Position numbers and translations under genes: made by a program
The notes under the pieces: generated by a model
Told to the model about the DNA's origin: nothing
Seen by the model: the letters and a program-made list of their open reading frames with translations, nothing else
Database searches by the model: none
NCBI GenBank assembly: GCA_963739595.1
Contig: CAVUBA010000007.1
Coordinates: 39,899-103,898, forward strand
Direction of reading: 5' to 3'
Origin: an uncultured Thermoleophilia bacterium
Lineage (GTDB): Bacteria; Actinomycetota; Thermoleophilia; UBA2241
DNA: 64,000 nt
In this document: one piece after another, positions 1 through 25,161 of the stretch
Position numbering within the stretch: position 1 is the stretch's first letter
Layout: the number at the start of each line of letters is the position of its first letter

Positions 1-1300
1 CGGCGAGCAGGTCGACGACGCCCGAGCCGCAGATGCCGATGGGCTCGGCGCCGGTGATGGTCACGATCTCGGTGGCCTCACCGTCGGGAGCGATCTTGAC
101 GCGCTCGATGGCGCCGGCCACGGCCTTCATGCCGTTGCGGATCTGGTAGCCCTCGAACGCCGGGCCGGAGGCGCAGCTCGTCACGGTGACGCGGCCGTCG
201 TGCGCGAGGGCGATCTCGGTGTTGGTGCCGATGTCGATCGCCATGCTCGGCCGCTTCTTGGTGGCGAGCTTCGTGGCGGCGACCACGGCGAGGGCGTCCG
301 AGCCGACGAACCCGGCGATGGGCGGCGGGAAGTGCACGCCGCCGTCCGGGTTCATGTCGATGCCGAGCTCACTCGCCTTGTAGGTGAGCGGCTCGGCCGC
401 GGCCGGGGCGAACGGAGCCTGGCCGAGGCCGACGGGCGACAGGCCGAGGGCGAGGTGATGCATCGCCGTGTTGCCCACCACCGTCATGTCGCAGACGTGC
501 TTGGGGTGGACGTCCTGGCGCTCGTAGAGCACTTTGAGGTTCGCGTTGATGCCGCCCCGGACGGCCTCCGCGAGCGTCGCCGTCGCGTTGTGCTGTGAGG
601 CGTGGGCGATGCGGCTGATGACGTCCTCGCCGTAGCGCATCTGGGGGTTCTCGACCGCCTCCTGGTCGATCAGCGCGCCGCGCCGGAGGTCGAACAGGTA
701 GGCGATGACCTTGGACGTGCCGATGTCGACGGCGACGCCGTAGCACTCGCGGTCACGCTCGCCCGGGTGGACGTCGATGACGCGCTTGCCGTAGCACGTG
801 GCCGTGACCTTCCACTTGCCGTCACGCAGCGTGGCGGGAAGCTCCTCGAGGACGTGCAGCGGTACCTCGACCCCGCCGAGACCCTCGTCGAAGCGCTCCA
901 GGTCGGAGCGCTTGTCGGCCAGCGTCGGCGGCTCGAGCTGGATCGACCGCGTGCTCACCGCGGGATGCGCGGCGCCGTGCGTGAGCTTGGACGTGGTCAG
1001 GATGCGGCGCTGCCCGGCGGTGCCGCGCACCTCGATGCTGACGCGCGCCGAGCGAGGGTACGCCTGGCAGGCCAGGCGCCAGCCCTCGGCGCGCAGCTTC
1101 TCCGGGATGCGCTTGAGCTCACGCTCCGTCGGCGCCGTGAGCTCTCCCGAGCCCAGGCGGACGAGGCACTTGCCGCAGGTACCGCGGCCGGCACAGTCGG
1201 TGGGGATGTCGATCTGGGCGCGCACGAGCCCGTCGAGCAGGTTCTCCTGCTCATCGACGGTCAGCGTGAGGCCGATGGGCTCGACGAAGACTTTCGGCAC
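1..1300 (-). CDS. Corrinoid reductive activator (RamA/RACo family; N-terminal 2Fe-2S ferredoxin + ASKHA ATPase); runs off the window edge
   Basis: Manual minus-strand translation from GTG 1300 (AGGAGAG upstream): CAGRGTCGKC...RLACQ 2Fe-2S motif, then VAVDIGTS, NPQMRYGEDVISR, DIGTNTE, GPAFEG and GICGSG, typical of RACo activators. Confidence 0.9.
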   Translation of the reverse strand, partial: MPKVFVEPIGLTLTVDEQENLLDGLVRAQIDIPTDCAGRGTCGKCLVRLGSGELTAPTERELKRIPEKLRAEGWRLACQAYPRSARVSIEVRGTAGQRRILTTSKLTHGAAHPAVSTRSIQLEPPTLADKRSDLERFDEGLGGVEVPLHVLEELPATLRDGKWKVTATCYGKRVIDVHPGERDRECYGVAVDIGTSKVIAYLFDLRRGALIDQEAVENPQMRYGEDVISRIAHASQHNATATLAEAVRGGINANLKVLYERQDVHPKHVCDMTVVGNTAMHHLALGLSPVGLGQAPFAPAAAEPLTYKASELGIDMNPDGGVHFPPPIAGFVGSDALAVVAATKLATKKRPSMAIDIGTNTEIALAHDGRVTVTSCASGPAFEGYQIRNGMKAVAGAIERVKIAPDGEATEIVTITGAEPIGICGSGVVDLLA

Positions 1301-1356
1301 GTTCTCTCCTGCCTCGGTCCTTCCCCTCAGGCCTCCGCGCTCAGACTCGGGTCCCC

Positions 1357-2653
1357 TCAGACCCTCGCCTCGCCGAACACGTCGGCCATGCGGTTCTTGC
1401 GGTCGACGACCTTCTGCATGCGCGCGTCCCACACCTCGTTGAGCGTCGGGCCGTGGTTGGGCTCGAACATGCCGGCCACGCCCAGCCGCTCGCGGTCGGC
1501 GTCGCAGTTCTCGCAGTGGCACTGGCCCTCGACGTAGTCCTGGGGCTCCGTGTACGCGCTGATCACGCCCTCGTAGTTGCGCAGGATGACCTTGCCCGGC
1601 GCCTGGCTGATGACGTAGTTGGGGAAGACCGGTGTCTTCCCGCCGCCGCCGATGGCGTCGATGATGTAGGTCGGCACGCCGAAGCCGGTGGTGTGGCCGC
1701 GCAGGCTCTCGTAGATCTCGATGCCCTTGGAGACGCTGGTGCGGAAGTGGGCGGTGCCCTGCGCCAGGTCGCACTGGTAGTAGTAGTAGGGCTTGACGCG
1801 GTACTGCAGCAGCCGGTGGGAGAGCTTCTTCATCACGGCGGCGCAGTCGTTGATGCCGCGCATGAGCACCGTCTGGTTGCCCATCGGGATGCCGGCGTCG
1901 TTGAGCCGGTCGCAGGCCAGCTTGCTCTCGGCGGTGAACTCCTGCGGGTGGTTGAAGTGCGTGTTGAAGTAGATCGGCTGGTACTTGCTCAGCATCTCGA
2001 CCAGCTCGGGCGTGATGCGCTGCGGGCACACGACCGGCACGCGCGAGCCGATGCGGATGATCTCGACGTGGTCGATGGCGCGCACGCGCTTGAGGATGCT
2101 CTCGAGCTGCTCGTCGCTGAGGACCAGCGGGTCACCGCCGCTGATGAGCACGTCGCGGACCTCGGGGGAGCGCTCGATGTACTTGATCGCGTTGTCGATC
2201 TCGGTCTGGGCGACGATGTCCTCGGTGCCGCCGACCAGGCGGCGACGGGTGCAGTGGCGGCAGTACATGCTGCACATCTCGGTGACGACGAAGAGCACGC
2301 GGTCCGGGTAGCGGTGCGTGATGCGCGGCGTCGGCGAGTCGAAGTCCTCGGAGACGGCGTCCTCGATGTCCTCGGCGTGGATGACGAGCTCGGCCGGCGT
2401 CGGCACGGCCTGCATGCGCACTGGGTCCGTGCGAGTCGTCGGGATCCATGAGCGACGCGTAGTAGGGCGTGACGCTGACGCGGAACTTGCCCATGCACGC
2501 GTCGAGGTCCTTGCGCTGCGCGTCCGTGAGGTTCAGGACGCCGGCGAAGTCGTCGGTGGTGGTGAGGCGATTGCGCAGCTGCCAGCGGTAGTCGTTCCAC
2601 TCGGCGTCGCTGACGTCTTTGAATCGCGGTATGTCCTTGCGGTCTCTGATCAT
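1357..2653 (-). CDS. kamA: Lysine 2,3-aminomutase (KamA/AblA-type radical SAM, PLP); frameshift near 2425
   Basis: N-terminus MIRDRKDIPRF..WNDYRWQLRNR (ORF 2132..2746) joins ORF 1357..2421: THRYPDR, CSMYCRHCTRRR, LISGGDPL, GGGGKTPV (PLP Lys), C-terminal CHCENC zinc site, closely like clostridial LAM. Confidence 0.9.
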
Positions 2654-2831
2654 GTGAGCGTCTCCTTCTCCGCGAGGCCCCTGACCCCCGCGGCTCCCTG
2701 CTTCACCGCTACGTCCGGCGATCAAGTCGCCGGGACGATGATGCACCCTTGCATACAGAGTTTACAGCGTCGGCCCGTGGGCCGTCGCCGGACTTGTGCG
2801 GCGCGGGCCGTCGCAGGCCCGCCCGCGTCAG

Positions 2832-4252
2832 CTACAGCCCGGGTCCCGCGATGATGCGTTCGATCACGCCGCGAGCCTCGGCGCCGAGCGGCACGGCAGT
2901 GTGCTCGGCGAGCAGCTGACGCCGCGAGGGCGGTCGCCTTCTCGTAGGCGCCTTCCCTGCCGGAGGCGATCCAGGCGTCCCACATGGTGCGGTCGAGCAG
3001 CCGGGGACGCCACACGTCCTTCATGTGCCGGCGCGTGTGGCGCTGGCCGAGGTAGTTGCCGCCGATGCCGACCTGCTTGATCGCGTCCAGCGCGATGGTC
3101 TCGTCGTCGACGTCGATGCCGGCGGCGATCGCCGCGTTCCAGCTGAAGATCTCGCTGTCCATGACCAGCTGCTGCGGGCTGAATGCGGTGGCGGCGCCGA
3201 GGGTGCCGGCTCCGCCGGTCACGTCGGCGCCCGACGCCGTGGTCGTCATGGAGACGAACGCGTCCTGCTGACAGGCCTGCCAGTCGGGCTCGTGGCTGGT
3301 GGTGCGCAGGCCGCCGGCGACGAGCGGCAGGCCCACGTGGGCCGCGAGCTGGGCGGCGGCGAGCTGGAACAGCGACGCCGACGGTCCGCGCCGGCAGGCC
3401 GGCGGCCGCGGGATCGGCGACGTAGAAGAACGGCGCGCCGGGGGCCGCGGCCTGGACGGCCGCGCAGCCGGCGAGCACGCCGGCGTGGTGGCGGATGAGG
3501 GCGGGGCCCAGGTCGGCCGCCTCGGCCGCGCCGGCCTCGCCGGTCATCGCGGACGGAGATGACGGCGGCGCAGGCACGCCGGAGGCCGCGTCGGCCGGCG
3601 CCAGGACCACGCCGACGGGCAGGCCGGCGCGGGCGAAGACCAGCGCCGCCTCCAGCGCGTCGGCGCCGCCGCAGAGCGAGAGCGGCGGGCGGCGGCGCGC
3701 CTCGTCGGCGGAGCCGGCGACGGACGCCGCCATCGACACGGCCGCCTCGGCCTCGGCGGCGGTCGTCAGCAGTCCCGCGATCACGTGCTTGCTGGAGCCC
3801 GCGAAGCAGCGCGCCAGCGCGCCCAGCCCGGGGACGCCGGCCGCGCGCAGCGGCGGGCCGGCGAGCACGCCCACCTGGGGCAGCGCGTCGGCGAGCCGGA
3901 CGGCGTCGTCCAGGTCGGCGGCGGTCGCCGGGACGGAGTCGCCGCCGGCGAGGCGGCGGACCCGCTCGGGGACGCCGGCCGGCCCGGCGGTCGCGGCGCC
4001 GGCGGCCAGCCACACGAGGCCGGCGCCAAGCTGCACGTCGTGCTCCGGCACGCGGCCGGCGAGGACGAAGCTCGACGGCGCCGACTGGGCCGCGGCCTCA
4101 GCCGCGGCGCCGTCGGCGCCAAGCAGCTCCAGCGCCGCCGCGTGCACGCGCGCGACGTCGTCGTCGCTCAGCACGCGCAGGGCGAGGCGCGCCTGGACGG
4201 TCATGATGGGGCGCGCCTCCACGGGCTGCGTCGCGCTCGTCGGCTCGGTCAT
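2832..4252 (-). CDS. Divergent, internally shortened trimethylamine methyltransferase (MttB superfamily, non-Pyl); frameshifted
   Basis: Starts MTEPTSATQP..LSDDDVARVHAAALELL. C-terminal half has EPDWQA, FSPQQLVMDSEI, ETIALDAIKQVGIGGNYLGQRHT. Indels near 3385 and 2920; stop TAG at 2832-2834. Confidence 0.75.
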
Positions 4253-5686
4253 CGGCTGCTCCCTTCTGCCTCGGCGAGCACGGCCTGCAGCCGGTCGCGG
4301 ATCGTCTGCTCCAGCGCGAACGCGCGCGGCTCGTCGCGCAGCTCCTGCGTGCGCACGGCCACGCGCTCCTTGAGCGTCGTCGCGCCGGCGGCGGCCCAGC
4401 GATCGTGGGTCGCGCGGTCGAACAGCGCGCGGCGCCCACGTCTCGCGGTGGTGCTGGCGCGTGTAGCCCCGGCCCAGGTGACTGCCGCCGGGGCCGACGG
4501 CGTCGATCTCGTTGAGCGCCAGCGACTCATCGTCGACGCCGACCTCGACGAGCAGCGCGCGGGCGTAGCCCACCAGCTCGTCGCCGAGGACGATCGTGTC
4601 GTAGCTGCTCTGCAGGCCGCTCTCCAGGTAGCCGACGTCGTGCAGCAGCGTGGCGCGGCTGAGCGCGCCGAGCACCGCGGTGATGCCGGCCTCGGCGGCC
4701 CACTGCTCGTCGAACGTCTTGGCGTCGGCGACCGCCGCGTAGGCGAAGCTCGGCAGGCCGTAGAAGCGCGCCAGGTCGGTCGCGGCGGCGTTGCCGAGGA
4801 AGTGCTCGGGCGCGCCGTACACGTCGACGGCGGTGCGCATGTCGAAGGCGCCGCAGCCGACGCCGTAGACGAACGGCGCGCCGCTGCGCGTCAGCTGATG
4901 GACGACGAGCCCGCTCAGCGTCTCGGCGTTGCCGATGACGATGGTCGCGGTCATGGACGCCGGCGCCGTGGTGCCCGCGGCGGGCGCCGGCGCGTAGACG
5001 AGCGGGATGTCGAGCTCGGCGCAGGCCCGGACCTTGTCCAGCGCCTCGCCGCTGTGGATGAGCGGCGGGTTGGGCATGGCGTAGCAGCCGAAGCTCCTGG
5101 CCTCGCCGCACATGGCGGCCATGTCCTTCATGCGGCGCAGGGAGACTGCGTCGTGCGCCGTGGTCAGCAGCGGCTTGCGCGTGCCGGCGAGCATGGCGGC
5201 GAACTGGGCGAGGTCGCCGATCTCCGCCGCCACGTCGTTCGGCAGGCCCATGCTCATGACGAAGTCGAGGTTGGGCAGCTTCTCCGCGAGCGCGGCCATG
5301 CCCTCGACGTCGGCGGTCGTGCTCTGGCGGCGTTCGCCGGTGTCGGGGTCGGTGACGTAGACACAGTCCGACCCCGTGCCGAAGTAGCTCTTGCCGTCCT
5401 CGAGCTCGAGGCCGCCGAGCTCGCCGCGGCGCGCGTGGCCCTCGCCGCCGGACGCGCCGCGCTCCTTGAGCTTGAAGTGGCGCGGCGCGCTCTGCAGGGC
5501 GGCGTCCACCAGGGCGGCCGGGATGCGGGCGCGCGTCCCTTCGACGCGCGCGCCCGCCTCCGCCAGCTGCTCGCGCGCGCCGGCGTGGCGGACCTCCACG
5601 CCGGTCTCCTCGAGCAGCGCGAGCGTCGCCTCGTGGACGCGCCAGCAGGCGGCGTCGTCCCAGACGGTGAGGCGGGCGGCGGGCAT
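4249..5686 (-). CDS. MttB-superfamily corrinoid methyltransferase (non-Pyl); frameshift near 4435
   Basis: RVHEATLALLEETGV, GTTAPASMTATIVIGNAETLSG, GLPSFAYAAVADAK, LHDVGYLESG, VGPGGSHL. The C-terminus is in ORF 4249..4530. Confidence 0.9.
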
Positions 5687-5708
5687 CAGCGGGTCAGGCG
5701 GCAGGCCA

Positions 5709-7176
5709 TCAGGCCCCCGCCAGCTCCTTGTCGGCGCGCGCGACGATCGCGCGCAGCTCGTTCACCACGTCCTCCGGCAGCGGCTCGGGCTGGTAGTTCG
5801 CCAGGATGTCGTCGGCGATCTCCGTCGCCTTCTCCAGGGCGCCCTTCTTGCCCTCGCGCAGCCAGTTGTCGTAGGGGGTGCGGTCCCAGACCGTGGGGCG
5901 CCAGATCTCCTTCATGTGCTGGCGCGTGTGCTTCTCGGCGAGGTACGTGCCGTTGTGCCCGACCTTCTTGATCACGTCGAGCGCCAGCGTCTCGTCGTCG
6001 ACGACGATGCCGTCCGCGACCTTCTGGACGATGCCGTAGATCTCGGTCTCCATGACCATGTGCGGGTAGCTGAGGATCTTGGAGCCGTTCAGCAGCCCGG
6101 CGCCGTTCATCATGTCGGCGTTGGTCATCACGCTGGCGAAGGTGCTGAGCGAGTCGTCGATGGCGGCCTGCCAGTCGGGCTCCTTGGCGCCGGTGGCCAT
6201 GGTGCCCATCGCCATCGGCACGCCGTAGAAGTGCGCGAGCTGGGTGGAGGCGCCGGCGAGGAGGTAGTCCTCGGGCGAGCCGCCGGTGTAGCCGCCGGTC
6301 TTGAGGTCGATGACGCTCGGGGCGCCGGCGAAGAACGCCGGCACGCCGGGATAGGCGAGCTCGAGGAGCACGACGCCGCTGAGCGCCTCGGCGTTCTGGA
6401 CCACGAGGTTGCCGGCCAGCGTCGCCGGGCCGGTGCCGGCCGCGAGCGGCATGGGCATGAAGCCGCTGGCCAGCCCGTGCTCGGCGGCCACGAGGTTGGC
6501 CTCGAGGTTGGGGCCGTCGTGCGCCGAGCGGGTCGACGGCGCACTGCATGAAGCTGAGGATCGGGCGCTCGCGCAGCTTGTCCGTGCCGCCGGTGATGGC
6601 GGCCGCCATCTCGACGAGGTAGCGGGCGGGCTTCTCGCCGACGGTGGTCACCGTCTGGAAGTGCTTGCTGGTGTTGGTGAACACGGCCTCGGCGTCGTGC
6701 AGCGCCTTGGTCGCCGGCGGCACGTCCTGGCTGGTGACCACGGGGCCCCAGTAGTAGCTGATGCTGGGCAGCGCGTCGACGAAGCGGGCGCTGGTCGCCG
6801 CGTCGGCCTTGGTGCTCGGCCGCTTCTCGCCCGTCTTGTGGTCGAACACGAAGACGCCGGAGCCGTCGTTGCTCAGGTAGCAGTGCTTGCCGTCGATGAG
6901 CATGTCGCAGGCGGGGTCGCGGCCGGCGAGCACGTAGCTGTCGGGCACCTGCGAGACGGCCTCCATGACGACCGCGCGAGGGAGCTTGGCGACCTGCGTC
7001 GCGCGGTCGACCTCACAGCCGTTCTTCTCGAGGACGTCGAGGGCGCGCTCGCTCGGGAACCGGATGCCCACCGTCTCGAGCACGTCGAGCGTGGCCTCGT
7101 GGATGCGCTCGAGCTCGCTGGGGTTCAGCACGTCCCACCAGAGACGGGGGGCGATGGGGTTGATTCGGGAAGTCAT
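5709..7176 (-). CDS. MttB-superfamily corrinoid methyltransferase (non-Pyl); frameshift near 6525
   Basis: RIHEATLDVLETVGIRF, GTGPATLAGNLVVQNAEALSG, DLKTGGYTGGSPE, GAKEPDWQA, ETLALDVIKKVG (ORFs 5686..7176 and 5709..6491). Confidence 0.9.
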
Positions 7177-7426
7177 TGCGGCAACCTCGCAGGGGTCCGA
7201 CGACGGCAGGTCAGGGTGGAGTCGGCAGCGGGCGGGCAGTCGCGGTGTTGCTCAGAAGGAGCCCGTCCGCGGAGGCGGAGGGCTTACAGACCGCAGGAGC
7301 GGTTGATCGTGCTGATGCTGATGTTGGCTGCGTCGGGCACGGGCCGGAGTCTATCACCGGGCCCACGCGCGGCAAACCGCTGCGAGACGCCGCAGAGTGC
7401 CGCACGTGCAGCGGTTTTTGCCGCAC

Positions 7427-8841
7427 TCACGTCCCGGGCCGGCAGGCCTCGACGTCCGCGAGGATCCGGTCGAGGCCCGCCTTCACGTCGTCCGGCAGCT
7501 CGAAGGCGCGCGGCTCGGAGCGCAGCTCCGCGACCCGCGCCCGCAGGCGGTCGAGCAGCGTCTTCGACCCGTCCGCCTCCCAGGCGTCGTGGCGGGTCGT
7601 GTCGAAGAGGTCGCTCTGCCAGATCTGCCGGAAGTGCTTGCGCGTGTACGGCCGGGCCAGGTGGTTGCCGCCCGGCCCCACCGCCTTGATCTCGTCCAGC
7701 GCCAGCGCCTCGTCGTCCACGGCCAGCGGCGCCATGAACGCCTTGGCCCAGCCGAGCAGGTGGTCGCCGAAGACGATCGACTCGTAGCTGCTCTGCAGCC
7801 CGCACTCGAGGTAGCCGACGTCGTGGAGCAGCGTCCCGCGCGAGAGCTTGCCGAGGATCGCCGGTCAGCGCCGCCTCGGCGCTCCACTGCTCGTCGAGCA
7901 CCTTGCTGTCGGTGTGCGCCGCGTAGGCGAAGCTCGGCAGGTCGTACCAGCGCGCGAGGTCCGTCTGCGCCTGGTGGCCGCGGAACACGTCGGCGGACGA
8001 GTACACCTCGTTCATCGTCCGCATGTTCATCGCTCCCACCCCGACGCCCCAGACGAACGGCGCGCCCGGCCTGACGGCCTGGCTCAGCACGAGGCCGGCG
8101 AGCACCTCGGCGTTGGCCACGACGATCACGGCCGCGACGCTCGCCGGCGCCGTGCGTGCCGGCGTTGGGCGCCGGCGCCCAGATCACCGGGATGCCGAGC
8201 TCGGCGCAGGCGATCACCTTGCTGGCGCCGTCCTCGTCGAAGAGCAGCGGCGGCACCGGCATCGCGTAGATGCCGAAGCTGTCGGCCTCGCCGGCCAGCG
8301 CCGCCATCTCCTTCATCTTGGCGAGGATGTGGCCGTCGCGCGGCGCGACCAGCAGCGGCTTGCGCGTGCCGCGCATCATGGCGTCGACCTGGACCAGGTC
8401 GTCGATGGCCTGCGGCGCGTCTTCCGGCAGGCCCATGCTCATCACGAAGTCGATGTTGGGCAGCTTCTCGCAAAGCGCGGCCATGCCCTCGACGTCGGCG
8501 CGGCGGACGCGGCGACGCTCGCGCGTGTCGGGGTCGCACACGTAGAGGACGTCGGAGCCGGTGCCGCAGTAGGTGTGCGCGGCGTCGAGGACGAGCGGCT
8601 CGGTGTCGCCGCCGCGCGGCTTGATCGTCCAGTCGCGCGGCGCACTCCTGATGGCGGCCTCCACGAGCTCGGCCGGGATGCGCACCCGCGTGCCGTCGAC
8701 CTGTGCTCCGGCCTTCGCGAAGATCTCGGCGGCCGGCGCGTACCGCACCTCGATGCCGGTCTCGGCGAGCACGTCGAGCGTCGCTTCGTGGACGCGCCGG
8801 CAGGCGTCGTCGTCCCAGATCGTCAGGCGAGCTGCGTTCAT
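7427..8841 (-). CDS. MttB-superfamily corrinoid methyltransferase (non-Pyl); frameshifts near 8155 and 7860; paralogue of 4249-5686
   Basis: MNAARLTIWDD..RVHEATLDVLAETG, NAEVLAG, DLPSFAYAAHTDSK, VGPGGNHL. GGAGG RBS upstream. Confidence 0.9.
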
Positions 8842-9103
8842 GTCGCCCCCTCCTCGCTCTCGTGATGGCCGGGCCGCGCCGCGCGGGACCGGATGGCGCG
8901 ATGATGGCGCCGGGCTCTGGTTGGACGCCCGAGCGAGGGCAAACCGTCGGCTCGGGCGGGGCGCGACTCTACCACCGGAGCACAGATGCGCCGTCGCGCC
9001 GTCGCGGTCTGATAGAGCGACGGCCCGCACCCGATCACGGGGTGCGGGCCGTCGAAGGAGGCGCCGCGCAAGGGGGATGACGGCGCCCATCGGGCGTCCG
9101 AGC

Positions 9104-10957
9104 CTACTCGTCGACCTCGCGCCCGCCCCGCCGCCGCACTACCAGGAACGCGACCAGCGAGATGACGGCAACGACGATCATCGCCACGACGATCCATGCG
9201 CTCGAACTGCCCGCGCCGGCCGTCTCGCTGGCGGTCGCCGGCTTCAGATTGACGTAGGTGTCGACGTTACCGGCCGTGAAGAACGCGGGGCCGTTGCCGT
9301 CCATGACCCGCGTCCAGCCGGTCCACCTTGAGGTGTTGTAGGCCTGGAAGAAGTCGGGGTAGGCGACGACGATCCACGGCGTCTGCTCGTACATGATCTG
9401 CTGCATGCGCCAGATCGTCTGCTGGCGCTGAAGGGGGTCGAGCTGGCTCGCCTGCTGTTCCCCGAGCTTGTCGTACTCGGCGTTCGACCAGCAGGGTTCG
9501 TTGGTGGCCCCGATCTGCTGTGTGGTGTTCGCAAGCAGCGTCTGGCCCGGGTCCATGTAGCCGAGCCAGCTGTTGATGTACAGGTCGAAGTCGGGCTTGT
9601 ACGTGGCGCCCTCGAAGTTCCAGATGCGGGCGTTCAGCGCCCCGGCGTCGAGCACGGTGAACTCGACCTTGATGCCGAGCTGCTTGAGCCAGCCGGTGAT
9701 CAGCTTGCCCTCGGTCTGGGACGACACGTTGTCCGTGCTCGCGTAGAGGCGGAGCTCGATCGGCTTGCCGCTCTTGTCGACGCGGCTTCCACCCTTGAGC
9801 GGGTAGCCCGCCGCGTCCAGCAGCTGCGCGGCCTTCGCCAGGTCGAAGCCCATCTCCTCGCTCGCCGACGGCTGCCAGTGGAAGTCCGGGTCCTGCCAGG
9901 TCTTGGGCGGCAGGATGGTCGTGCCCGGAGCGGCGAACCCCTGGAACGCGATCGCGCACAGCTTCGCCCGGTCGACCGCGTAGTTCAGCGCGTTGCGGAA
10001 CGTGGAGTCCCTGAGCACGGGGTTGCCCAGCGAATCCGGGCTCTCGTAGCAGTTGAAGTTGAGGTACTCCCAGTTGTAGTAGTGGTAGGCGATCGCCTGG
10101 GTCCCGGGCTCCGACTGCAGCGTGCGGAACTGCGCGACCGGGATGCCCCAGGCCGCGTCAAGGCTCCCCGACTTGTAGTCCATGGTCATCGTGTCCGGGT
10201 TCTCGTAGCTGGCGAAGATGAGCTCGTCCAGGGTCGGCCGCGTACCGTAGTAGTAGGGGTTGCGCGTCATGCGCAGGTACTTGCCCTTCACCCACTCGGT
10301 CACCTGGAACGGGCCGCTCCCGACGATCGGCACCGGATTCGTGAAGCTGGTGGTCGCCGCCTTCGGCGACACCTTGCTCCACACGTGCTCGGGGACGATG
10401 GGGATGAACACGCGCTCCATGTCGGCCTTGGGCCGCGAGCAGGTGATCTGCACCGTCGTCGGGTCCAGTGCCTTGGCGCCGATGATCCCTTGCGTCGCGA
10501 GCGCCAGGTTGAACATGTGGTTCTTGACGATGTAGTTGTAGGTGAAGGCGACGTCGGAGGCGGTCAGCGCCTGACCGTCGCTCCACTTCAGGCCCGGCTT
10601 GAGGTGGATGGTCCACACCTTGCCGTCCGCCGACAGGCCGCCGTTCTCCTTGGTCGGGAACTCGCTCGCCAGGTCGAGGGTCGGCTTGCTCGTCGTGCCG
10701 AACCCGAACAGGAAGCTGTAGTTGATCGACCAGATCTCGTAGTCCTGGTTCTGCCAGCCGACGAACGGGTTCAGGTTGTCCGGCTCGACCGTCCAGCCGA
10801 TCTTGAGCTGGAGAGGAGCGGCGGAACCTGACGGTTCAGGGCTCGACGCCTGCGCCGTCGCCGCGCCCAGCAGACCCAGCGCGAGCGCGACGAGCGCGAG
10901 CAGTGCGAAGCGGCGCACGCTGCCGTGGCGCGCGCTCCCGCGGCGTGCCTTCTTCAT
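9104..10957 (-). CDS. ABC transporter substrate-binding protein (oligopeptide/nickel family 5) with signal peptide and C-terminal membrane anchor
   Basis: MKKARR + hydrophobic signal, PDNLNPF, GLKWSDGQALTASDVAFTY, VGSGPFQV, FRNALNYAVDR. C-terminal hydrophobic helix followed by RRR. Confidence 0.88.
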   Translation of the reverse strand: MKKARRGSARHGSVRRFALLALVALALGLLGAATAQASSPEPSGSAAPLQLKIGWTVEPDNLNPFVGWQNQDYEIWSINYSFLFGFGTTSKPTLDLASEFPTKENGGLSADGKVWTIHLKPGLKWSDGQALTASDVAFTYNYIVKNHMFNLALATQGIIGAKALDPTTVQITCSRPKADMERVFIPIVPEHVWSKVSPKAATTSFTNPVPIVGSGPFQVTEWVKGKYLRMTRNPYYYGTRPTLDELIFASYENPDTMTMDYKSGSLDAAWGIPVAQFRTLQSEPGTQAIAYHYYNWEYLNFNCYESPDSLGNPVLRDSTFRNALNYAVDRAKLCAIAFQGFAAPGTTILPPKTWQDPDFHWQPSASEEMGFDLAKAAQLLDAAGYPLKGGSRVDKSGKPIELRLYASTDNVSSQTEGKLITGWLKQLGIKVEFTVLDAGALNARIWNFEGATYKPDFDLYINSWLGYMDPGQTLLANTTQQIGATNEPCWSNAEYDKLGEQQASQLDPLQRQQTIWRMQQIMYEQTPWIVVAYPDFFQAYNTSRWTGWTRVMDGNGPAFFTAGNVDTYVNLKPATASETAGAGSSSAWIVVAMIVVAVISLVAFLVVRRRGGREVDE

Positions 10958-10974
10958 GGTCTCCCCCTTCTCGT

Positions 10975-13540: not shown

Positions 13541-13571
13541 CGGCCACCCCGGGACCGGGAGCCAGGCGCCG

Positions 13572-14159
13572 TCAGATCCAGAAGCCTGGCGGCTCCGCGA
13601 GGTCCGGATGCTCACGCTCGAACGCGAGCGCGTCGTCGAGCGTGCGCACCCAGTCGTAGTAGACGCCCTTGCAGTGGACGAGGTCGACGCCGAGGTCACG
13701 CAGGCGGGCGAGGCCGCAGGCCTGCGCGCCCGCCGGCGAGTAGACGGCGTCGACGGCCACGACGACGCGGTAGCCGGCCTCCATGAGACCGACGGCCGAG
13801 TGCGTCACGCACACGTCGGTCTCGAACCCGCAGAGGACGGCCGTCCGGCGGCCGGTCGCCTCGATCGCCGCCATGATCTCCGGGCAGGCGGCGAGGTCGA
13901 AGACCGGCTTCTTGAACACCGGCGCGCGCCGGCCGACGGCCAGCAGCACCCCCACGGCCGTCGGCCCGTTCCGCTCCGGGCTCTCCTCGGTGAGCACGGC
14001 GGGCACGTCCAGGGCCATCGCCGTGCCGGCCAGCCAGGCGGCGCGCGCGGCCGCCCTGCTCACTTCTTCCGCGTCGCTCTTGTCGAGCCTGTCGCTCCAG
14101 AACTTGGGCTGCAGATCGATGACGATGAGGATGGAGTCGTCGCGTTCGAGCAGCGGCAT
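13572..14159 (-). CDS. Isochorismatase/cysteine hydrolase family protein
   Basis: LIVIDLQ (Asp), FKKPVF (Lys), GFETDVCV (Cys) catalytic triad pattern. Confidence 0.85.
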   Translation of the reverse strand: MPLLERDDSILIVIDLQPKFWSDRLDKSDAEEVSRAAARAAWLAGTAMALDVPAVLTEESPERNGPTAVGVLLAVGRRAPVFKKPVFDLAACPEIMAAIEATGRRTAVLCGFETDVCVTHSAVGLMEAGYRVVVAVDAVYSPAGAQACGLARLRDLGVDLVHCKGVYYDWVRTLDDALAFEREHPDLAEPPGFWI

Positions 14160-14470
14160 GGTCGCCTCCACGGCGTTGACGGATCCAGGTGCGCCCGGCC
14201 ATTCCGGACCGCATCTCACGGCACGATACCATGGTCAACTTGCACGAACTTCGCACGCCGACGCGCACCGCGCGTGACGGATTGCTCGGCGAAGTTGCGC
14301 GCGCCCGGCCGCGACGCTTTACTCGCGCGCGCCCCGCCCATACGCTCGGGCTCTGCGAGCGGCGGGGCGCTCCTGCGACCACGCCCGTGGGGCCGGGCGA
14401 CCTGACACCGTTCCGCCCCACCCGTCGTCTCGCCGGCCGACACACATCGCCAGCCAGCGGAGGTGCTCCA

Positions 14471-15939: not shown

Positions 15940-16580
15940 ACGAACCGCTCAAGCAAGCCATCATCGACGGCAACGCCGACACGGCGCTGGCCCTGACGCA
16001 GGCCCTGCTGGCCAGCGGCGCCTCCGCCCGCGAGATCCTCGACGAGGCCCTGCTCCCCGGCATGGAGGTGGTCGGCGTGCGCATGCGCGAGGGCGACTGC
16101 TTCATCCCCGAGGTGCTGCTCAGCGCGCGTCATGCAGAGCTGCCTCGACCTGCTGCGCCGCACATGGCCGCCGGCGACGAGGCCGGCGGCGGCACCGTCG
16201 TCATCGGCACCGTCGAGGGCGACCTGCACGACATCGGCAAGAACCTGGTCGGCATGCTGCTCCAGGGCGCCGGCTTCAGCGTGGTCAACCTCGGCACCGG
16301 GGTCTCGGCCGCCGACTTCGTCGCCGCGGTCAGGGAGCACGCGCCGGCGATCATCGGCATGAGCGCCCTGCTCACGACCACCCTGCCGCACATGAGCGAG
16401 ACCATCGCCGCGCTCAAGGACGCGGGCCTGCGCGACTCGGTCAAGGTGATGGTCGGCGGCGCCCCGGTCACGGCCGCCTACGCCGACGAGATCGGCGCCG
16501 ACGGCTACGGCGCCAACGCCGGCATGGCGGTGGAGCGGGCGAAGGAGCTGACGGAACTAGTCTGGGCCTGCGGGTCCTGA
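15936..16580 (+). CDS. mttC: Methyltransferase cognate corrinoid protein (MttC/MtbC family)
   Basis: GTVEGDLHDIGKNLV (DxHxxG cobalamin motif), SALLTTT, VMVGGAPVT, GADGY. ATGA overlap with mttB; short compensating frameshift near 16130-16160. Confidence 0.92.
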   Translation: MNEPLKQAIIDGNADTALALTQALLASGASAREILDEALLPGMEVVGVRMREGDCFIPEVLLSARHAELPRPAAPHMAAGDEAGGGTVVIGTVEGDLHDIGKNLVGMLLQGAGFSVVNLGTGVSAADFVAAVREHAPAIIGMSALLTTTLPHMSETIAALKDAGLRDSVKVMVGGAPVTAAYADEIGADGYGANAGMAVERAKELTELVWACGS

Positions 16581-16594
16581 AGGGGGAGGGCCTC

Positions 16595-17956
16595 ATGACC
16601 GCGACCATCGACCGCGAGCGGCTCGCGGCGCTCAAGGCGCGCGAGGACGACGACTTCGTCGCGCGCCATCCCCGCTCCCGCGCGCTCTTCGAGCGGGCGC
16701 AGGCGCACCTGCTCGACGGCGTCCCCATGAACTGGATGACGCGCTGGTCGAGCCCGTTCCCGCCCTACGTCGCCGAAGCGCACGGCGCCCGGTTCACCTG
16801 CGTCGACGGGCACGAGTACGTCGACTTCTGCCTGGGTGACACCGGCGCGATGACCGGCCACTCTCCCGAGGGGCCGGCCTCCGCCATCGCCGCCCAGGCC
16901 GCCCGGGGCATCACCACGATGCTGCCGACCGAAGACTCGCTCTGGGTGGCCGACGAGCTCTCCCGCCGCTTCGGCCTGCAGTACTGGCAGCTGGCGCTCA
17001 CGGCGACCGACGCCAACCGCTTCGCCATCCGGCTGGCCCGCCACGTCACCCGCCGGCCCAAGATCCTCGTCTACAACTACTGCTACCACGGCTCGGTGGA
17101 CGAGACGATCATCACCATCAACGACGGCGTGCCGGGCCCCAAGCCGGGCAACGCCGGCCCGCCGGTCGACCCCACCGTCACGACCAAGGTGATCGAGTGG
17201 AACGACCTCGAGGCGCTGGAGCGGGCGCTCGAGCCCGGCGACGTGGCCTGCGTCCTCGCCGAGCCCGCCCTCACCAACATCGGCATCATCCTGCCGGACG
17301 ACGGCTACCACGACGCGCTCCGCCGCCTGACGCGCGAGACCGGCACGCTGCTCATCATCGACGAGACGCACACGATCTGCGCGGGTGTGGGGGGCTGCAC
17401 CCGCGCCTGGGGACTCGAGCCCGACATGGTGACCCTCGGCAAGCCGATCGGCAGCGGAGTGCCCGCGGCCGTGTACGGCTTCGGCCAGGCGCTCGCCGAC
17501 CGCATCCACCGCGACTGGGACTACCACGCCGCGGACGAGTGCGGCATCGGCGGCACCCTGGCGGGCAACGCTCTCAGCGTCGCGGCAGTCCGAGCGACGC
17601 TGGGCGAAGTCCTCACGGACGAGGCCTACGAGCGGATGATCCCGCTCGCCGGCCGCTGGGCCGACGGCGTGCAGGGCGTCATCGACGAGTTCGCCCTGCC
17701 GTGGGTGGTCAAGCGCCTCGGCTGCCGGGCGGAGTACTGGCCGCGGCCCGTGCCGCCGCACAACGGCGGCGAGGCGGCCGCGGCCGAGGACGAGCAGCTC
17801 GACCGCTTCCTGCACCTCTTCATGCTGAACCGCGGCATCCTGATGACGCCGTTCCACAACATGGCGCTCATGGCGCCGCAGACGACCGCGGCGGACGTCG
17901 ACCGGCACACCGCGGTGCTGCGCGAGGCTGCGCAGGCGCTCGTCACACAGGCCTAG
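16595..17956 (+). CDS. Class III PLP aminotransferase (glutamate-1-semialdehyde aminomutase-like)
   Basis: DVDG-like CVDGHEYVDFCLGDTG, YHGSVDE, EPALTN, IIDETHT, TLGKPIGSG (PLP Lys), GGTLAGN. GGAGG RBS. Confidence 0.88.
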   Translation: MTATIDRERLAALKAREDDDFVARHPRSRALFERAQAHLLDGVPMNWMTRWSSPFPPYVAEAHGARFTCVDGHEYVDFCLGDTGAMTGHSPEGPASAIAAQAARGITTMLPTEDSLWVADELSRRFGLQYWQLALTATDANRFAIRLARHVTRRPKILVYNYCYHGSVDETIITINDGVPGPKPGNAGPPVDPTVTTKVIEWNDLEALERALEPGDVACVLAEPALTNIGIILPDDGYHDALRRLTRETGTLLIIDETHTICAGVGGCTRAWGLEPDMVTLGKPIGSGVPAAVYGFGQALADRIHRDWDYHAADECGIGGTLAGNALSVAAVRATLGEVLTDEAYERMIPLAGRWADGVQGVIDEFALPWVVKRLGCRAEYWPRPVPPHNGGEAAAAEDEQLDRFLHLFMLNRGILMTPFHNMALMAPQTTAADVDRHTAVLREAAQALVTQA

Positions 17957-18522
17957 TCGGCGCGCAGCGGCTGCCAGCCGCTCGGGTCCGCCCCCGAGTC
18001 GGTGTGGGAGCGAGCGCGGCCCTCGAGCCCGGCGCCGGGCCCCGCCCGCGAGACGTCGACGGCGATCGTCCCATGCAGCGAGCCGTTGAAATGGTAGGGC
18101 GGCAGGGCGTAGTTGCGGCCGGTCGCGTCGTCGACGAGGTCGAGCCTGCTCTCGCGGAACTTGTCGTCGGCCGTGAGCTGGACCGTCACCGTCGCGCCGG
18201 CGGCCACCCTGGGAACGACGGCGTGCCCCGCCCCGTCGACCTGGTCGAGGCTCAGGCTGTCGAGCGGCGTCGATCCGCCGTTGTGGATGGTCACCGTCAC
18301 CTGCAATGGCGGCGTGAAGCAGCCCTGAGCGCGGAGCACGAGGTAGGTCGCGAGCGCCGCCACAACGATCAGGACGGCGACGAGGACCCAGAGGCGCCGC
18401 CTCCGGCGGCGCCGGCTCAGCCTTTCGGTCACCGGTGCGCTCCCGTCCTCATGCGCCGTCGCTCGACTCGAAGCGGATGCGCCAGCTCGCCATCGACGCT
18501 CGATCTCGGCTCGCACGCTCAC
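17953..18522 (-). CDS. Hypothetical membrane-anchored protein
   Basis: Arg-rich stretch, one transmembrane helix, then a beta-rich domain. Overlaps the stop of the upstream mttB-like gene. Confidence 0.55.
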   Translation of the reverse strand: MSVRAEIERRWRAGASASSRATAHEDGSAPVTERLSRRRRRRRLWVLVAVLIVVAALATYLVLRAQGCFTPPLQVTVTIHNGGSTPLDSLSLDQVDGAGHAVVPRVAAGATVTVQLTADDKFRESRLDLVDDATGRNYALPPYHFNGSLHGTIAVDVSRAGPGAGLEGRARSHTDSGADPSGWQPLRAD

Positions 18523-20005
18523 GGTCGCTCAGGCCCCGCGAGCTCGGCGTCGGCGGCCGCGACGAGCCGCCGGAGCTCGGCGCTGCACGTCTGCGGCAGC
18601 GGGTCGGGCGCGTGGGACGCGAGGATCTCTCGCGCCCGTTCCTCCGCGTTCTCCAGCGCACCGCTTCTTGCCGCGCCGCCAGCCAGGCGTCGTAGGACGT
18701 CCGGTCCCAGACACCCGGGCGCCAGATCTCGCCCATGTGCGCCCGCGTGTGCTTCTCGGCCAGGTACGTGCCGTTCGGCCCGACCTTGCGGATGACGTCG
18801 AGCGCCAGCGTCTCGTCGTTCACTTCGATGCCGCCGGCCGTCTTCTGCACGATGCCGTAGACCTCGGCCTCCATCAGCAGATGCGCGTAGCTCAGGGTCT
18901 TCGAGCCGTCGAGCAGGCCGCAGCCGCTCATCATCTCGGCGCCGGCCGAGACGCTGGCCAGCGTCGAGAGCGCGTCGTCCACGGCTGCCTGCCAGCCCGG
19001 CTCCTTGGCCCCGCTCGCCATGGTGCCCATGTTCATGGCGAAGCCGAAGTGGTGGGCGAGCTGCGTGGCGGCCGCGGCCAGGACGTAGTCCTCGGGGCTG
19101 CCGCCGGTGTAGCCGCCGGTCTTGAGGTCCATCACGGAGGGCGCGCCGGCCAGAAACACCGGCGCGCCCGGATGCGCCAGCTGCAGCAGGACGATCCCCG
19201 CGAGCACGGCCGCCATGTTGACCACGAGGTTGCCGGCCATGGTCGCCGGCGCGGACGCACAGGCGAGCGTGAGCGAGAGGAAGCCGACCGGAACGCCGGC
19301 CTCCGCGCAGACGAGCGCCGCCTCGAGGCTCACGGCCTCGTTGCTCAGCGGATCGATCGGGCAGGCGATGAGGCTCATGATGGGCCGGCGCCGGAGCTCG
19401 TCGGCCCCGCCGGCCACCACCCGCGCCATCTCGACCGCGCGTCGCGCCATCGCCTCGCCCACCACGTCGACCGCCTGGAAGTGCTTGCTCGTGTTCGCGA
19501 AGATCGCCTCGAGCTCGTGCAGCGGCCGGGTGGCCAGGGGTACGTCCTCCGCGGTCACCACGGGACCCCAGTAGAAGCTGACCTGCGGGACGGCGTCGAC
19601 GAAGCGGGCGGAGTCGGCGACGTCCGCCTTGGTGCTGGGGCGCAGCTCGCCGGTGTCCGGATCGAGAACGCGCACGCCGCACCCGTCGTTGCTGAGGTGG
19701 CAGGCAGCTCCGTCGAGGACGATGTCGCAGCGGGGGTCGCGGGCGGCGAGGAGCGGCGCCTTCGGCGCCGCCTGCAGCGCCGCCCGCACGACGGACTCGG
19801 GCAGGCGCGCGACCTGCGACGCGCGATCGACGCGGCAGCCGCCGCGTTCCAGCGCGTCGAGCGCGCGCTCCAGCGGGAAGCGCACGCCGACCTCGGCGAG
19901 CGTCTGGAGGATGCCCGCCTCCAGCCGCTCCAGGTCGGTCGCGCTCAGCACGTCCCAGCGCAGGCGCGGCCTGATCGGATCGATACGCAGGGCTGCGTCC
20001 GCCAT
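18519..20005 (-). CDS. MttB-superfamily corrinoid methyltransferase (non-Pyl); frameshift near 18670; paralogue of 5709-7176
   Basis: HLSNDGCG, FYWGPVVT, NTSKHFQ, APATMAGNLVV, DLKTGGYTGGSPED, GAKEPGWQA, VGPNGTYLAEKHT. The C-terminus is in ORF 18519..19682. Confidence 0.9.
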
Positions 20006-20225
20006 CGCTCCTCCTCGTCGCCGCGCCTGATGCTACCCGGCGGCCGCGGCCCGCGTCATCCGGCCTCCGCAGGAGATGCGCAGCCGGGCAGATCCGGGGT
20101 CCACGTCAACATCCAGCCCTGCAGCCTTCGCGAGCCCGGGCGACCTTCCCCGTACGCGAACGGGGCGGCGAGGCGCTCAGCGCCTCGCCGCCCCGGCTCT
20201 TGTCCATGGCCTTCCGGCCGGTCCC

Positions 20226-21233: not shown

Positions 21234-21234
21234 C

Positions 21235-23538: not shown

Positions 23539-23670
23539 GCCTCCGTCCTTTCCGGCTGACTTTTCCCGACGGCCGCGATACCCACGGGCGTGGACTTCTA
23601 CGGATGGCGGCCCCCACCGCCTGTCAGGACGATCAGCGTCGCACTCCCCCGGCGCGACGTGTTGAGTTGG

Positions 23671-23699
23671 ATTTATACAGCACCGCCCCCAAAAGACAA
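23671..23699 (-). promoter_or_regulatory. Sigma70-like promoter for the amino-acid ABC operon
   Basis: Minus strand reads TTGTCT-16 nt-TATAAA, with TG before the -10, in an AT-enriched intergenic patch. Confidence 0.55.
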
Positions 23700-23779
23700 C
23701 CCTCCCGGAGGCTGGCGACGTAGGGTCTCGACCCGAGTCTGTGAGTATCTGCGCGCGCTCGCGTCGCAGGAGCGGCGGC

Positions 23780-25161
23780 TCAGTCGATCTGGGCCAGCCG
23801 CCTCAGCTCGGCGTCCACGCGCCGGATCGAGGGCGGGCGGGCGGTGCGAGGCGACCGCGGCGGCGATGCGCTCGTGGGCACGGTCGATCGCCGTCTCGCG
23901 CCCTCCGGCAGTCCAGTGACGGTGCGCCTTGTCGACGGCCAGGGAGGGGCCGGCGGCGGGCGAAGCCTGCCCGCCGGCCGAACCGCCGGCAGAAGTCAGG
24001 TCCACGCCTGCAGCGATACTGCGCGCATGTGAGAGCGCCTCGACCCCGAGCGCCATCTCCTCGTAGCTGAAGATCCGGCCGCCGGAGACCATGCCCACCC
24101 CGGTGAGCATGTCGACGCCGGCGGCGAGCGACAGGTACGTGGTGGTCGTGTCGTCCAGCGCCGACTGCCAGCTCGGCTCCTTGGCGCCGCTCGAGTTGAC
24201 GCCGCACTGCGTCGGGAGGCCGTAGAAGTGGCCGACGTCGCCGACGGCCGCGGCCATGATCGTGTCCTCGGGAGCCCCGCCGGTGAAGTCGCCGCTCTTG
24301 AGGTCCATGACGCTCGGGATGAAGCAGATGAAGACCGGCGCGCCCGGGAAGGCGGCCTGGATGGCGCACACCGAGCTCAGCGCCTCGGCGATGCCGATGA
24401 CGAGCGAGCCGGCCATCGTGATCGGCGTGGTGGAGCCGCCCATCGGCATGGTCACGAAGCCGATCGGGATGCCCGGCCTCGGCGAAGACCAGGCCGGCCT
24501 CCAGCGTCCCCTCGTCGTTGCCCAGAGGCGTGACCGTGCCGAGCAGCGCGCTGATCGGCGGCTCGGCACGGAGCTTCTCCTCCGAGCCGCTCACCGCGAG
24601 CGCCATCTGCACGGCGACCTCGGCGAGGTCCGGCTCGACGACGGTCACCGTCTGCACGTGCTTGCCGGTGTTGGCGATCGCCAGGTAGAGCTCGTGCAGT
24701 CCCCGCACCGAGACCGGCCGGTCCTGCGCGCTCACGGCCGGCCAGCAGAAGTCGACCTCGGGCAGCGCGTCGACGACGCGGCTGATGGTCGCGACGTCGT
24801 CGGCCGTGGTGCCGCGCTTCTCGCCCGTCTCGAGGTCGTAGATCTCGACGCAGCAGCCATCGGTCGTGACCAGCGAGCGCTCGCCGGTGACGATCGGCGC
24901 GCCGGCACGGGCGCCCAGCGTCAGGTGCGCCGGCGCGAGGCCGACGAGCCGGCGGACGAGCTCCGCCGGCATGGTGACGCGCACGCCGTCTGCCGTCGCG
25001 CCCTGCGCGACGAGCGCCGCGCGTGCGCGCTCGGATGGAATCGCCACGCCGACCTCGGCGAGCACCTCGAGCGCCGCGGCGTCCAGTCGCTCCAGGTCCT
25101 CCCGCGAGAGGATGGCCAGGCGCCCGGCCGAGCCGATGGTGTGGGTGAGGGTCTCCGTCAT
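23780..25161 (-). CDS. MttB-superfamily corrinoid methyltransferase (non-Pyl); frameshifts near 24475 and 23820
   Basis: LSREDLERLDAAALEVLAEVGV, NTGKHVQ, GSTTPITMAGSLV, DLKSGDFTGGAPE, GAKEPSWQS; ends ..DAELRRLAQID*. Confidence 0.87.

Follow-up and report, generated by a model that had tools for sequence, protein, structure and literature searches.

Genes in the First 25 kb of the Window

The stretch of DNA analyzed here, called the window, comprises 64,000 nucleotides of contig C7 (G000:C7:39899-103898) of the metagenome-assembled genome (MAG) G000 of an uncultured Thermoleophilia bacterium. Its first 25 kb carry seven genes of the MttB methyltransferase family (g1 to g7) together with the lysine 2,3-aminomutase gene kamA, genes for the reductive activase RACo and an MttC-type corrinoid protein, and the further genes listed in Table 1. 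The host genome is 2.31 Mb in size, lies on 39 contigs and is 66.6% complete. The G+C content of the window is about 70%, and the choice of reading frames was guided by codon-position G+C.

The seven MttB genes were found where an initial annotation of the sequence had placed them: the MttB profile PF06253 matches at all seven places and, when the frames are summed, covers most of its 500 positions. Gene boundaries were mapped with a local hidden Markov model (HMM) built from 17 unbroken paralogues. Also as annotated, kamA and the genes for an agmatine deiminase, a carbamoyltransferase and a class III aminotransferase are interleaved with the MttB genes, all found with Pfam or NCBIfam models, and the window holds one MttC and one RACo.

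Table 1. Features of the first 25 kb of the window. Breaks are positions at which the assembled reading frame shifts; Pyl, pyrrolysine.
Feature	Position	HMM span	Strand	Remarks
RACo-type ATP-dependent reductive activase	2-1285, continues past the window start to G000:C7:39411		-	PF00111, PF17650, PF17651, PF14574
Lysine 2,3-aminomutase, kamA	1360..2690		-	TIGR03820 513 bits on the broken copy; break near 2431
g1 MttB	2832..4270	2850-4186	-	Pyl position R; breaks ~2918, ~3390
g2 MttB	4249..5690	4276-5677	-	Pyl position V; break ~4426
g3 MttB	5709..7200	5742-7137	-	Pyl position A; break ~6526
g4 MttB	7427..8850	7460-8832	-	Pyl position H; breaks ~7863, ~8155
Strain-variable insert	9107..13537		mixed	
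SBP_bac_5 (orphan)	9107-10900		-	Pfam/NCBIfam
Ornithine/putrescine-type carbamoyltransferase	10978-11937		-	Pfam/NCBIfam
TetR HTH fragment	12093-12620		-	Pfam/NCBIfam
Agmatine deiminase	~12480-13537		+	PF04371 in two frames; frame breaks
Isochorismatase-family hydrolase	13575..14234		-	PF00857; beside g5 in some relatives
g5 MttB	14471..15912	14516-15909	+	in-frame TAG 15452-15454; break ~15666
MttC-type corrinoid protein	15936-16577		+	PF02310 (B12-binding), PF02607 (B12-binding_2), DLHDIG motif
Class III aminotransferase, PRK07046 type	16562..17953		+	NF005453 672 bits (cut-off 425)
191-codon open reading frame downstream of g6	17956..18528		-	no Pfam or NCBIfam match
g6 MttB	18519..20032	18561-19963	-	Pyl position A; break ~18663
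Polar-amino-acid ABC importer, ATPase	20229-21323 (stop to stop)		-	Pfam
Polar-amino-acid ABC importer, permease	21238-22644 (stop to stop)		-	Pfam
Polar-amino-acid ABC importer, SBP_bac_3	22648-23802 (stop to stop)		-	Pfam
g7 MttB	23780..25170	23814-25122	-	Pyl position S; break ~24470, divergent C-terminus

When the whole assembly was searched in six frames with PF06253, 39 pieces were obtained that resolve into 28 MttB loci on 11 contigs. A second MttB cluster (G000:C7:50-7770, locus L032) lies 32 kb before the window and consists of five MttB genes, an IclR regulator and an MttC gene. For the residue at the pyrrolysine position 27 of the 28 loci were aligned with MAFFT, leaving out a 135-residue fragment on contig C34, and the alignment was anchored on a HMMER alignment of g6 with M. 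barkeri MttB (PDB 7xcl). The residues read earlier by manual alignment were reproduced, namely R, V, A, H, TAG, A and S in g1 to g7. The two proposed pairs of close paralogues were recovered as well, with amino acid identities of 58.8% for g2/g4 and 61.4% for g3/g6 (about 72% at the DNA level).

In a tree of the MttB proteins of the genome g1, g7, g3 and g6 form one clade (UFboot/SH-aLRT 90/77, 92/83 and 98/94), g2 and g4 are sisters and group with an MttB on contig C37 (100/99), and g5 joins two other TAG-bearing MttB proteins (100/100). The most conserved MttB of the island is g3; among the matches listed for its orthologue there are at least 120 protein homologues, all at least 61% identical and all with generic names only. 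An intact orthologue of the g7 type is found at L113:1746-3158. With TIGR02369 (cut-off 525) g6 reaches 399.6 bits and stays below the cut-off, and g2 and g4 give no match at 1e-8. NCBIfam was found to hold no model that separates the non-Pyl MttB types.

A Conserved Gene Neighborhood Around kamA

The gene kamA is present in a single copy in G000. An orthologue on the related locus L113 scores 568 bits with TIGR03820 (cut-off 525.4) and 536 bits with the Clostridium lysine 2,3-aminomutase 2A5H, to which D293, D330, K337 and the motif CSMYCRHC can be aligned. We take D293 and D330 to be the aspartate pair holding the epsilon-amine, K337 to be the lysine that binds pyridoxal phosphate and CxxxCxxC to be the radical-SAM motif.

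To compare the surroundings of kamA, the best 80 of 129 KamA loci were searched by tblastn with the proteins of the window; in 70 of them KamA is at least 66% identical to the protein of the window. Of the 64 loci with room for RACo downstream of kamA, 62 encode it there at a distance of at most 600 bp. On the other side, an MttB gene on the same strand ends at most 900 bp upstream of kamA in 57 of 60 loci with room, and its best match is g1 in 54. The link with lysine genes that the initial annotation had suggested is thus upheld for kamA, which is a recurrent and tight neighbor of these genes. Judged by gene order, the lysine link is real within this lineage.

Downstream of RACo there follow EamA genes and then genes for a HemL-like class III aminotransferase and a Kce-like beta-keto-acid cleavage enzyme (BKACE), the latter with 372 bits to the Kce model (cut-off 382). 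In G000 five or six tandem EamA permease genes stand between RACo and the HemL-like aminotransferase, just before the window (G000:C7:33775-39290); relatives carry one to four EamA copies. In the distant relative L113 the complete core lies on one strand in the order g7-type MttB, SBP_bac_3, permease, ATPase, g3/g6-type MttB, g1-type MttB, KamA, RACo, EamA, aminotransferase and BKACE. MoeA and a GGDEF gene flank it there, as they do in G000. In G007 kamA, RACo, the aminotransferase and BKACE make up a single compact unit.

The other genes of lysine fermentation were found elsewhere. KamD, KamE, a thiolase and Kdd are encoded in a separate operon in G002, with the KamD, KamE and Kdd models above their cut-offs, and KamD of G000 is located on contig C35. 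Since KamA, the Kce-like and the HemL-like protein are encoded in the island and KamDE and Kdd elsewhere, the island would hold the first and the late steps of lysine fermentation. According to the accessible text of PMC3149608, Kat of the variant lysine fermentation of 'Candidatus Cloacamonas acidaminovorans' is a HemL-like class III enzyme. The island resembles this pathway in the joint encoding of KamA, a Kce-like BKACE and an aminotransferase of the HemL-like class III group, and differs from it in that the pathway is split over two loci, with MttB genes and RACo interspersed in the kamA/kce half. The aminotransferase of the island is likened to Kat as a member of the HemL-like class III group.

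The ATP-binding cassette (ABC) importer between g6 and g7 is of the polar-amino-acid type. The nearest NCBIfam and PDB matches of its SBP_bac_3 protein are cystine, Lys/Arg/Orn and Gln/Arg binders, which at this level of sequence identity is only a hint. In distant relatives the importer is located between g7-type and g3-type MttB genes. The ABC content of the MttB stretch consists of this complete system and an orphan SBP_bac_5, where two ABC systems had been annotated.

Active-Site Residues of the Non-Pyl Paralogues

The glycine betaine site of MtgB is made up of Y97, R312, H348 and F356 (PMC13080624). The accessible text of the same paper states that the arginine at position 312, which forms a salt bridge to the acid group of the substrate, is conserved in all characterized non-Pyl members, and that all of these act on quaternary-amine (betaine-type) compounds.

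In the six non-Pyl paralogues of the window, g1, g2, g3, g4, g6 and g7, the R312 equivalent is V, F, A, F, N and Q and the F356 equivalent A, G, S, G, S and G, respectively. The H348 equivalent is retained in g2 and g4 only. The Y97 position is non-aromatic in all six, the loop alignment of g2 and g4 differing at this place between MAFFT and HMMER. In these residues the six do not look like the characterized betaine enzymes, as had been supposed; none has the arginine equivalent to R312 of MtgB. For an orthologue of g2, with F in place of R312 and with H348 kept, the match with MtgB (9yce) reaches 172 bits and that with MttB (7xcl) 148 bits; g6 matches MttB (7xcl) at 226 bits and MtgB (2qne/9yce) at 194 bits. 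Only one paralogue in the genome combines Arg and Phe at the R312 and F356 positions. It is encoded outside the window at G000:C7:50-1427 and is a candidate true betaine enzyme.

Compared with D. hafniense MtgB (PDB 2QNE/9YCE), the g1 orthologue described below has the same predicted fold; Y97, R312 and F356 are kept in none of the six and H348 only in g2 and g4. The likeness to M. barkeri MttB-MttC (PDB 7XCL/7XCN) lies in g5, which carries a TAG in place of the Pyl codon, scores high with TIGR02369 and has MttC next to it. Differences are the bacterial host and the Pyl-equivalent residues of the remaining six paralogues, which are R, V, A, H, A and S. By score g3 and g6 are nearer to MttB than to MtgB, yet they lack Pyl.

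The g1-Type Protein

Proteins of the g1 type are Ala-rich and in most members about 30 residues shorter at the N-terminus. For their alignment 32 of 37 g1 open reading frames (five with stops or of odd length were dropped) and three paralogues were used. The C-terminal third is strongly conserved, and an Ala/Pro-rich insert is disordered in the predicted model. This model, made for a g1 orthologue, has a pLDDT of 85.6 and a pTM of 0.85 and superposes on 7xcl, 2qne and 9yce with TM scores of 0.77-0.78 (probability 1.0); the g1 type is confidently predicted to fold as an MttB barrel. In the two closest pairs, from eight of the 80 loci compared, the ratio of nonsynonymous to synonymous substitution rates (dN/dS) is 0.24-0.36 for g1 versus 0.08-0.12 for g3. 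In 21 of the 30 loci with an upstream open reading frame, g1 begins in a 4-nt overlap with the stop codon of the MttB gene before it; in 25 of 30 the two lie within 4 nt of each other.

The Trimethylamine Module, MttC and RACo

Among the seven genes only g5 has an in-frame UAG, and its TAG codon aligns with the Pyl of 7xcl. The piece before the TAG alone reaches 435 bits with TIGR02369 over model positions 2-312 of 469 (cut-off 525). On these features g5 is a pyrrolysine-type trimethylamine methyltransferase MttB. The pyrrolysine set was found in the genome with tRNA-Pyl (pylT), PylB, PylC, PylD and the PylS C-domain. The complete pyrrolysine cassette (G000:C14:29154-36824, locus L031) adjoins a corrinoid protein gene, and its PylS C-domain is frame-shifted as assembled. 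In a relative, a TAG-split dimethylamine methyltransferase (Dimeth_Pyl) is encoded within the same island, upstream of g3 (L040:2629-4371).

MttC has a motif of the DxHxxG type and both the cap and the B12-binding domain; it scores 170.8 bits with TIGR02370, below the cut-off of 215.3. It is 94% identical to an MttC encoded beside a TAG-bearing MttB on contig C31, the latter being 69% identical to g5, and because of this identity MttC was assigned to the trimethylamine module of g5. Five MttC-like genes were found in the genome by tblastn, and MttC (more than 50% identity) is encoded at eight of 39 related loci with room for it. The middle of the window MttC (16100-16320) translates to an odd Pro/Ala-rich stretch, and a minority of contigs from one public run have one base fewer at 16309, within this gene. 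The odd stretch may be a compensated pair of consensus errors, which may explain the TIGR02370 score below the cut-off.

The part of RACo inside the window contains the Fer2, linker and middle domains and the start of the ASKHA domain, and an orthologue at L043:11104-12990 has all four domains. There is one RACo copy in G000 and one in G002, two each in G007 and G013 and four in G015. G002 is 98% complete and encodes no further RACo, so that the protein serves as activase for the whole genome. A lysine-specific role of RACo, the activation of KamA or KamDE, would fit the compact unit of G007 but is speculation, as RACo is the sole activase for all corrinoid systems of G000 and G002.

The view that seven enzymes share one MttC and one activator as a closed system is not supported, as the genome has 28 MttB loci and five MttC genes. 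Nor is the shared-carrier design new. The accessible text of PMC8604678 describes for Eubacterium limosum several MttB proteins that have a single corrinoid protein, a single activase and a single folate methyltransferase in common, all separately encoded. The E. limosum network (MtpB, MtcB, MtyB and MthB with the corrinoid protein MtqC, the activase RamQ and MtqA) is alike in its substrate-specific non-Pyl spokes on a shared corrinoid protein and activase. It differs from the system described here, which resides in an actinobacterial host, has paralogues without the conserved substrate arginine, and has a core that is set among lysine-fermentation genes and an ABC importer of the amino-acid type. 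In the Thermoleophilia island no gene of the MtqA type was seen, and the likeness is one of design.

Frame Breaks in the Assembled Genes

As assembled, all seven MttB genes shift frame internally, with nine breaks in all and one or two per gene. Breaks are also present in kamA, in the agmatine deiminase gene and elsewhere in the genome, in UPF0182, BKACE, aminotransferase and pylS genes. The codon-position GC signature runs unbroken across every one of them.

Logan contigs of four public runs (three DNA libraries and one RNA library, at least 90% alike) were aligned to window positions 1-20000. They have one base fewer at 2431, 2918, 4426, 6526, 7863, 8155, 12589 and 18663, and an extra G after 15666. 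Among the matches listed, at least seven of the eight MttB break sites within this range differ by one base. In addition, six of the 80 related loci (L034, L035, L041, L043, L046 and L092) were compared directly at the break sites. At six sites all six loci are one base shorter than the window, and near 3390 five of the six are two bases longer; the extra base in kamA near 2431 is absent from all six. L043 has unbroken orthologues of g4, g3, g2, g1, kamA and RACo. Because the breaks are absent in the six relatives and the orthologues on L043 are intact, the breaks appear private to this assembly; they are most simply read as consensus errors, and the genes would be intact in nature.

The Strain-Variable Insert

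Between g4 and g5 the window carries an insert with genes for an orphan SBP_bac_5, a carbamoyltransferase, a TetR fragment and an agmatine deiminase. The carbamoyltransferase scores 282.9 bits with the ornithine carbamoyltransferase (OTC) model (cut-off 280.85) and 299 bits with the putrescine model (cut-off 500). Any of OTC, agmatine deiminase or SBP_bac_5 is present in only five of the 39 related loci that extend at least 9 kb upstream of kamA.

The neighborhood was also compared in five congeners by DNA search. In G013 RACo, kamA and g1-g4 are followed directly by g5, MttC, the aminotransferase and g6, and the 5.4 kb with SBP_bac_5, carbamoyltransferase, TetR, deiminase and the isochorismatase-family gene are missing. 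The island of G022 lacks SBP_bac_5, carbamoyltransferase and deiminase and retains the isochorismatase-family gene beside g5; homologues of the carbamoyltransferase and the deiminase are found together, on a different contig of this genome. The class III aminotransferase of the PRK07046 type recurs beside MttC or g3 in several relatives. By its distribution the agmatine-deiminase/carbamoyltransferase insert is strain-variable and unrelated to the methyltransferases.

Lineage and Remaining Genes of the Window

MttB matches were found in all 24 genomes of the same genus that were surveyed, with 17-98 candidate pieces per genome. Among 16 genomes from other families of the class Thermoleophilia, nine gave no MttB match and the remaining seven one to three. 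The KamA loci that are 66-98% identical to that of the window come from MAGs of uncultured Thermoleophilia, Actinomycetota or Actinomycetes, and one is labelled Deltaproteobacteria. In river, sediment, peat and wetland runs a fraction of 0.28-0.34 of the sampled words is present, which indicates close relatives only. Contigs of the RNA library X15 match g2, g3, g4, g5 and g6 at 90-99%, which is not evidence of transcription here.

According to the accessible text of Ellenbogen et al. (2023; PMC10805028), Actinobacteriota MAGs from a thawing permafrost mire express Pyl and non-Pyl mttB as well as mtbB. These are likewise wetland Actinobacteriota with versatile corrinoid methyltransferases, including Pyl-type mttB; that text is silent on the structure of the island, on a link with lysine fermentation and on the residue patterns. 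A literature search on pyrrolysine in Thermoleophilia gave nothing relevant.

The genes dnaA, dnaN, recF, gyrB and gyrA are located at 30845-40874 of the window, so that the MttB island lies about 5 kb from the chromosomal replication-origin genes. At 43095-47018 (minus strand) a single frame of 1308 codons combines Aminotran_1_2 and SHMT domains with GCV_T, a folate-binding aminomethyltransferase domain. Relatives encode the aminotransferase separately and GCV_T-SHMT as one frame of about 965 codons, in which TGA occurs in frame once in G022 and three times in G002; tRNA-Sec is present in G000. The region 50064-63958 encodes an acetamidase/formamidase, a protein of arginine-deiminase fold, an amino-acid permease, a GNAT protein, a saccharopine-dehydrogenase-like protein, an enolase-superfamily enzyme and an arginase-family protein among nitrogen-compound genes.

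Discussion

The first 25 kb of the window are very probably the edge of a syntenic island kept in an uncultured Thermoleophilia genus with an expansion of MttB, in which the genes are intact and the frame breaks private to this assembly. As the explanation of the whole we favor, as a rather probable one, a hub-and-spoke panel of corrinoid-dependent demethylases whose core possibly works on methylated lysine. The ancestral core would have had the order g7-type MttB, polar-amino-acid ABC importer, g3/g6-type MttB, g1-type MttB, kamA, RACo, EamA permease or permeases, HemL-like class III aminotransferase and Kce-like beta-keto-acid cleavage enzyme. In G000 the duplicates g2/g4 and g6, the trimethylamine module of g5 and MttC, a second aminotransferase and the variable insert would be later gains.

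As expected from their families, each TIM barrel of MttB fold would accept one N-methylated substrate and pass the methyl group to the Co(I) of a shared MttC-type protein, RACo would re-reduce inactive Co(II) with ATP, and the methyl group would be handed on to a folate-type acceptor encoded elsewhere; the substrate of g5 would be trimethylamine. The ABC system would take up the core substrate, lysine would be released from it by demethylation, and this lysine would enter the Kat-variant fermentation by way of KamA and the Kce-like and HemL-like proteins of the island, with KamDE, Kdd and thiolase supplied from elsewhere. That the core non-Pyl enzymes act on N-methylated lysine or a close relative is suggested by the gene context and is offered tentatively. 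That the core is an undescribed anaerobic pathway for N-methylated lysine (e.g., N-epsilon-tri-, di- or mono-methyl-lysine) is a bolder proposal and, on balance, a somewhat unlikely one. As part of such a pathway the fast-evolving g1-type protein, whose gene is taken to be translationally coupled to the MttB gene before it, would be a specialized or a non-catalytic partner subunit of the MttB encoded upstream. Literature searches for a link of MttB with aminomutase or beta-lysine, for corrinoid-dependent demethylation of trimethyllysine and for a BKACE-aminomutase link found none.

Several points speak against the methyl-lysine proposal and the frame it stands in. The substrate class is deduced from gene context only. 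The 70 supporting loci belong to one actinobacterial lineage, in which shared ancestry alone could preserve the order, and neither MttB nor RACo was found near KamA in any of ten more distant loci (at most 61% identity, other phyla). With at least 28 MttB genes in a genome, adjacency to any pathway is expected by chance, and the location of RACo next to kamA does not have to imply a lysine-specific role, since G000 and G002 possess no other activase. The core cluster of L113 has no MttC. No corrinoid:folate methyltransferase was found in the window, and PF00809 gave genome-wide one MetH-like match and one weak match of 74 bits; CdhD (PF03599) was not found in the 66.6%-complete genome, which says nothing about its absence. 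We know of no precedent among non-Pyl MttB proteins for the full demethylation of a tertiary or secondary amine. As to the intactness of the genes, only part of the Logan contig depth carries each one-base difference, the shares at 6526 being 11.1/11.1, 83.4/267.7, 5.0/17.1 and 15.5/33.1 in the four runs.

The main rival, a serious possibility, is that the genes are neighbors by descent without a common pathway and that the non-Pyl MttB proteins demethylate unrelated methylated amines. It fits with the association being seen only in Thermoleophilia and in none of the distant KamA loci, with the genome-wide single copy of RACo in two genomes, with an island that freely gains and loses modules and with the spread of MttB loci over 11 contigs. 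It is harder to reconcile with the order MttB-KamA-RACo, which holds down to 66% KamA identity despite reshuffled flanks, in tight spacing and on one strand, with KamA and Kce being kept in the island apart from kamDE-kdd, or with an importer that is of the amino-acid and not of the betaine type. If instead the six non-Pyl paralogues were ordinary betaine-type demethylases (for glycine betaine, proline betaine, carnitine, gamma-butyrobetaine or phosphocholine), they would follow every characterized non-Pyl member (PMC13080624, in its accessible text), and g2 and g4 with their H348 equivalent and the slightly higher score to MtgB speak for it. However, the replacements at R312 and F356 in all six make it unlikely; no BCCT- or OpuA-type betaine transporter was seen within the island, and the only paralogue with Arg and Phe at these positions lies outside the window.

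The initial annotation had considered that the seven enzymes, MttC and the activator form one dedicated system which, together with agmatine deiminase and carbamoyltransferase, breaks down N-methylated polyamines, agmatine or guanidines. In the window these genes are indeed intermixed, and further arginine- and amidino-type genes follow at 50-64 kb. Against this, any insert gene is present in only a small part of the related loci, the insert is absent from the island in G013 and G022, where agmatine deiminase, carbamoyltransferase and SBP_bac_5 lie elsewhere (in G022 the first two on one other contig), and agmatine deiminase and carbamoyltransferase already form a self-contained known pathway. 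The polyamine/guanidine reading is by this comparison largely refuted, and we consider such a system very improbable. Hardly credible, too, is a graveyard of pseudogenes in which the breaks are real and the paralogues dead. The nine breaks in seven genes could suggest decay, but they are missing in all six relatives and in the contigs of other runs, breaks also strike kamA, agmatine deiminase, UPF0182, pylS and other genes, the GC signature continues over each of them, and the orthologues are intact and under purifying selection; this reading was rejected.

According to the accessible text of PMC13080624, most clades of the MttB superfamily have no known substrate, which is named there as the main obstacle to reading metagenomes. 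The island offers a concrete, testable candidate, in which a non-Pyl MttB clade without the betaine arginine is found together with an importer of the amino-acid type and with enzymes at the entry and the exit of lysine fermentation, and the lineage keeping this arrangement consists of abundant wetland and soil actinobacteria. Should the proposal of methyl-lysine be false, the polyamine reading would still be wrong, and the seven enzymes with one carrier would be a local view of a genome-wide hub-and-spoke system. If it is true, methyl-lysine would be the first amino-acid substrate for the MttB superfamily, and these enzymes would be the first non-Pyl MttB proteins acting beyond the quaternary step. 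It would also mean a new route for protein-derived methyl groups into the one-carbon metabolism of anoxic soils, and competition with methylotrophic methanogens.

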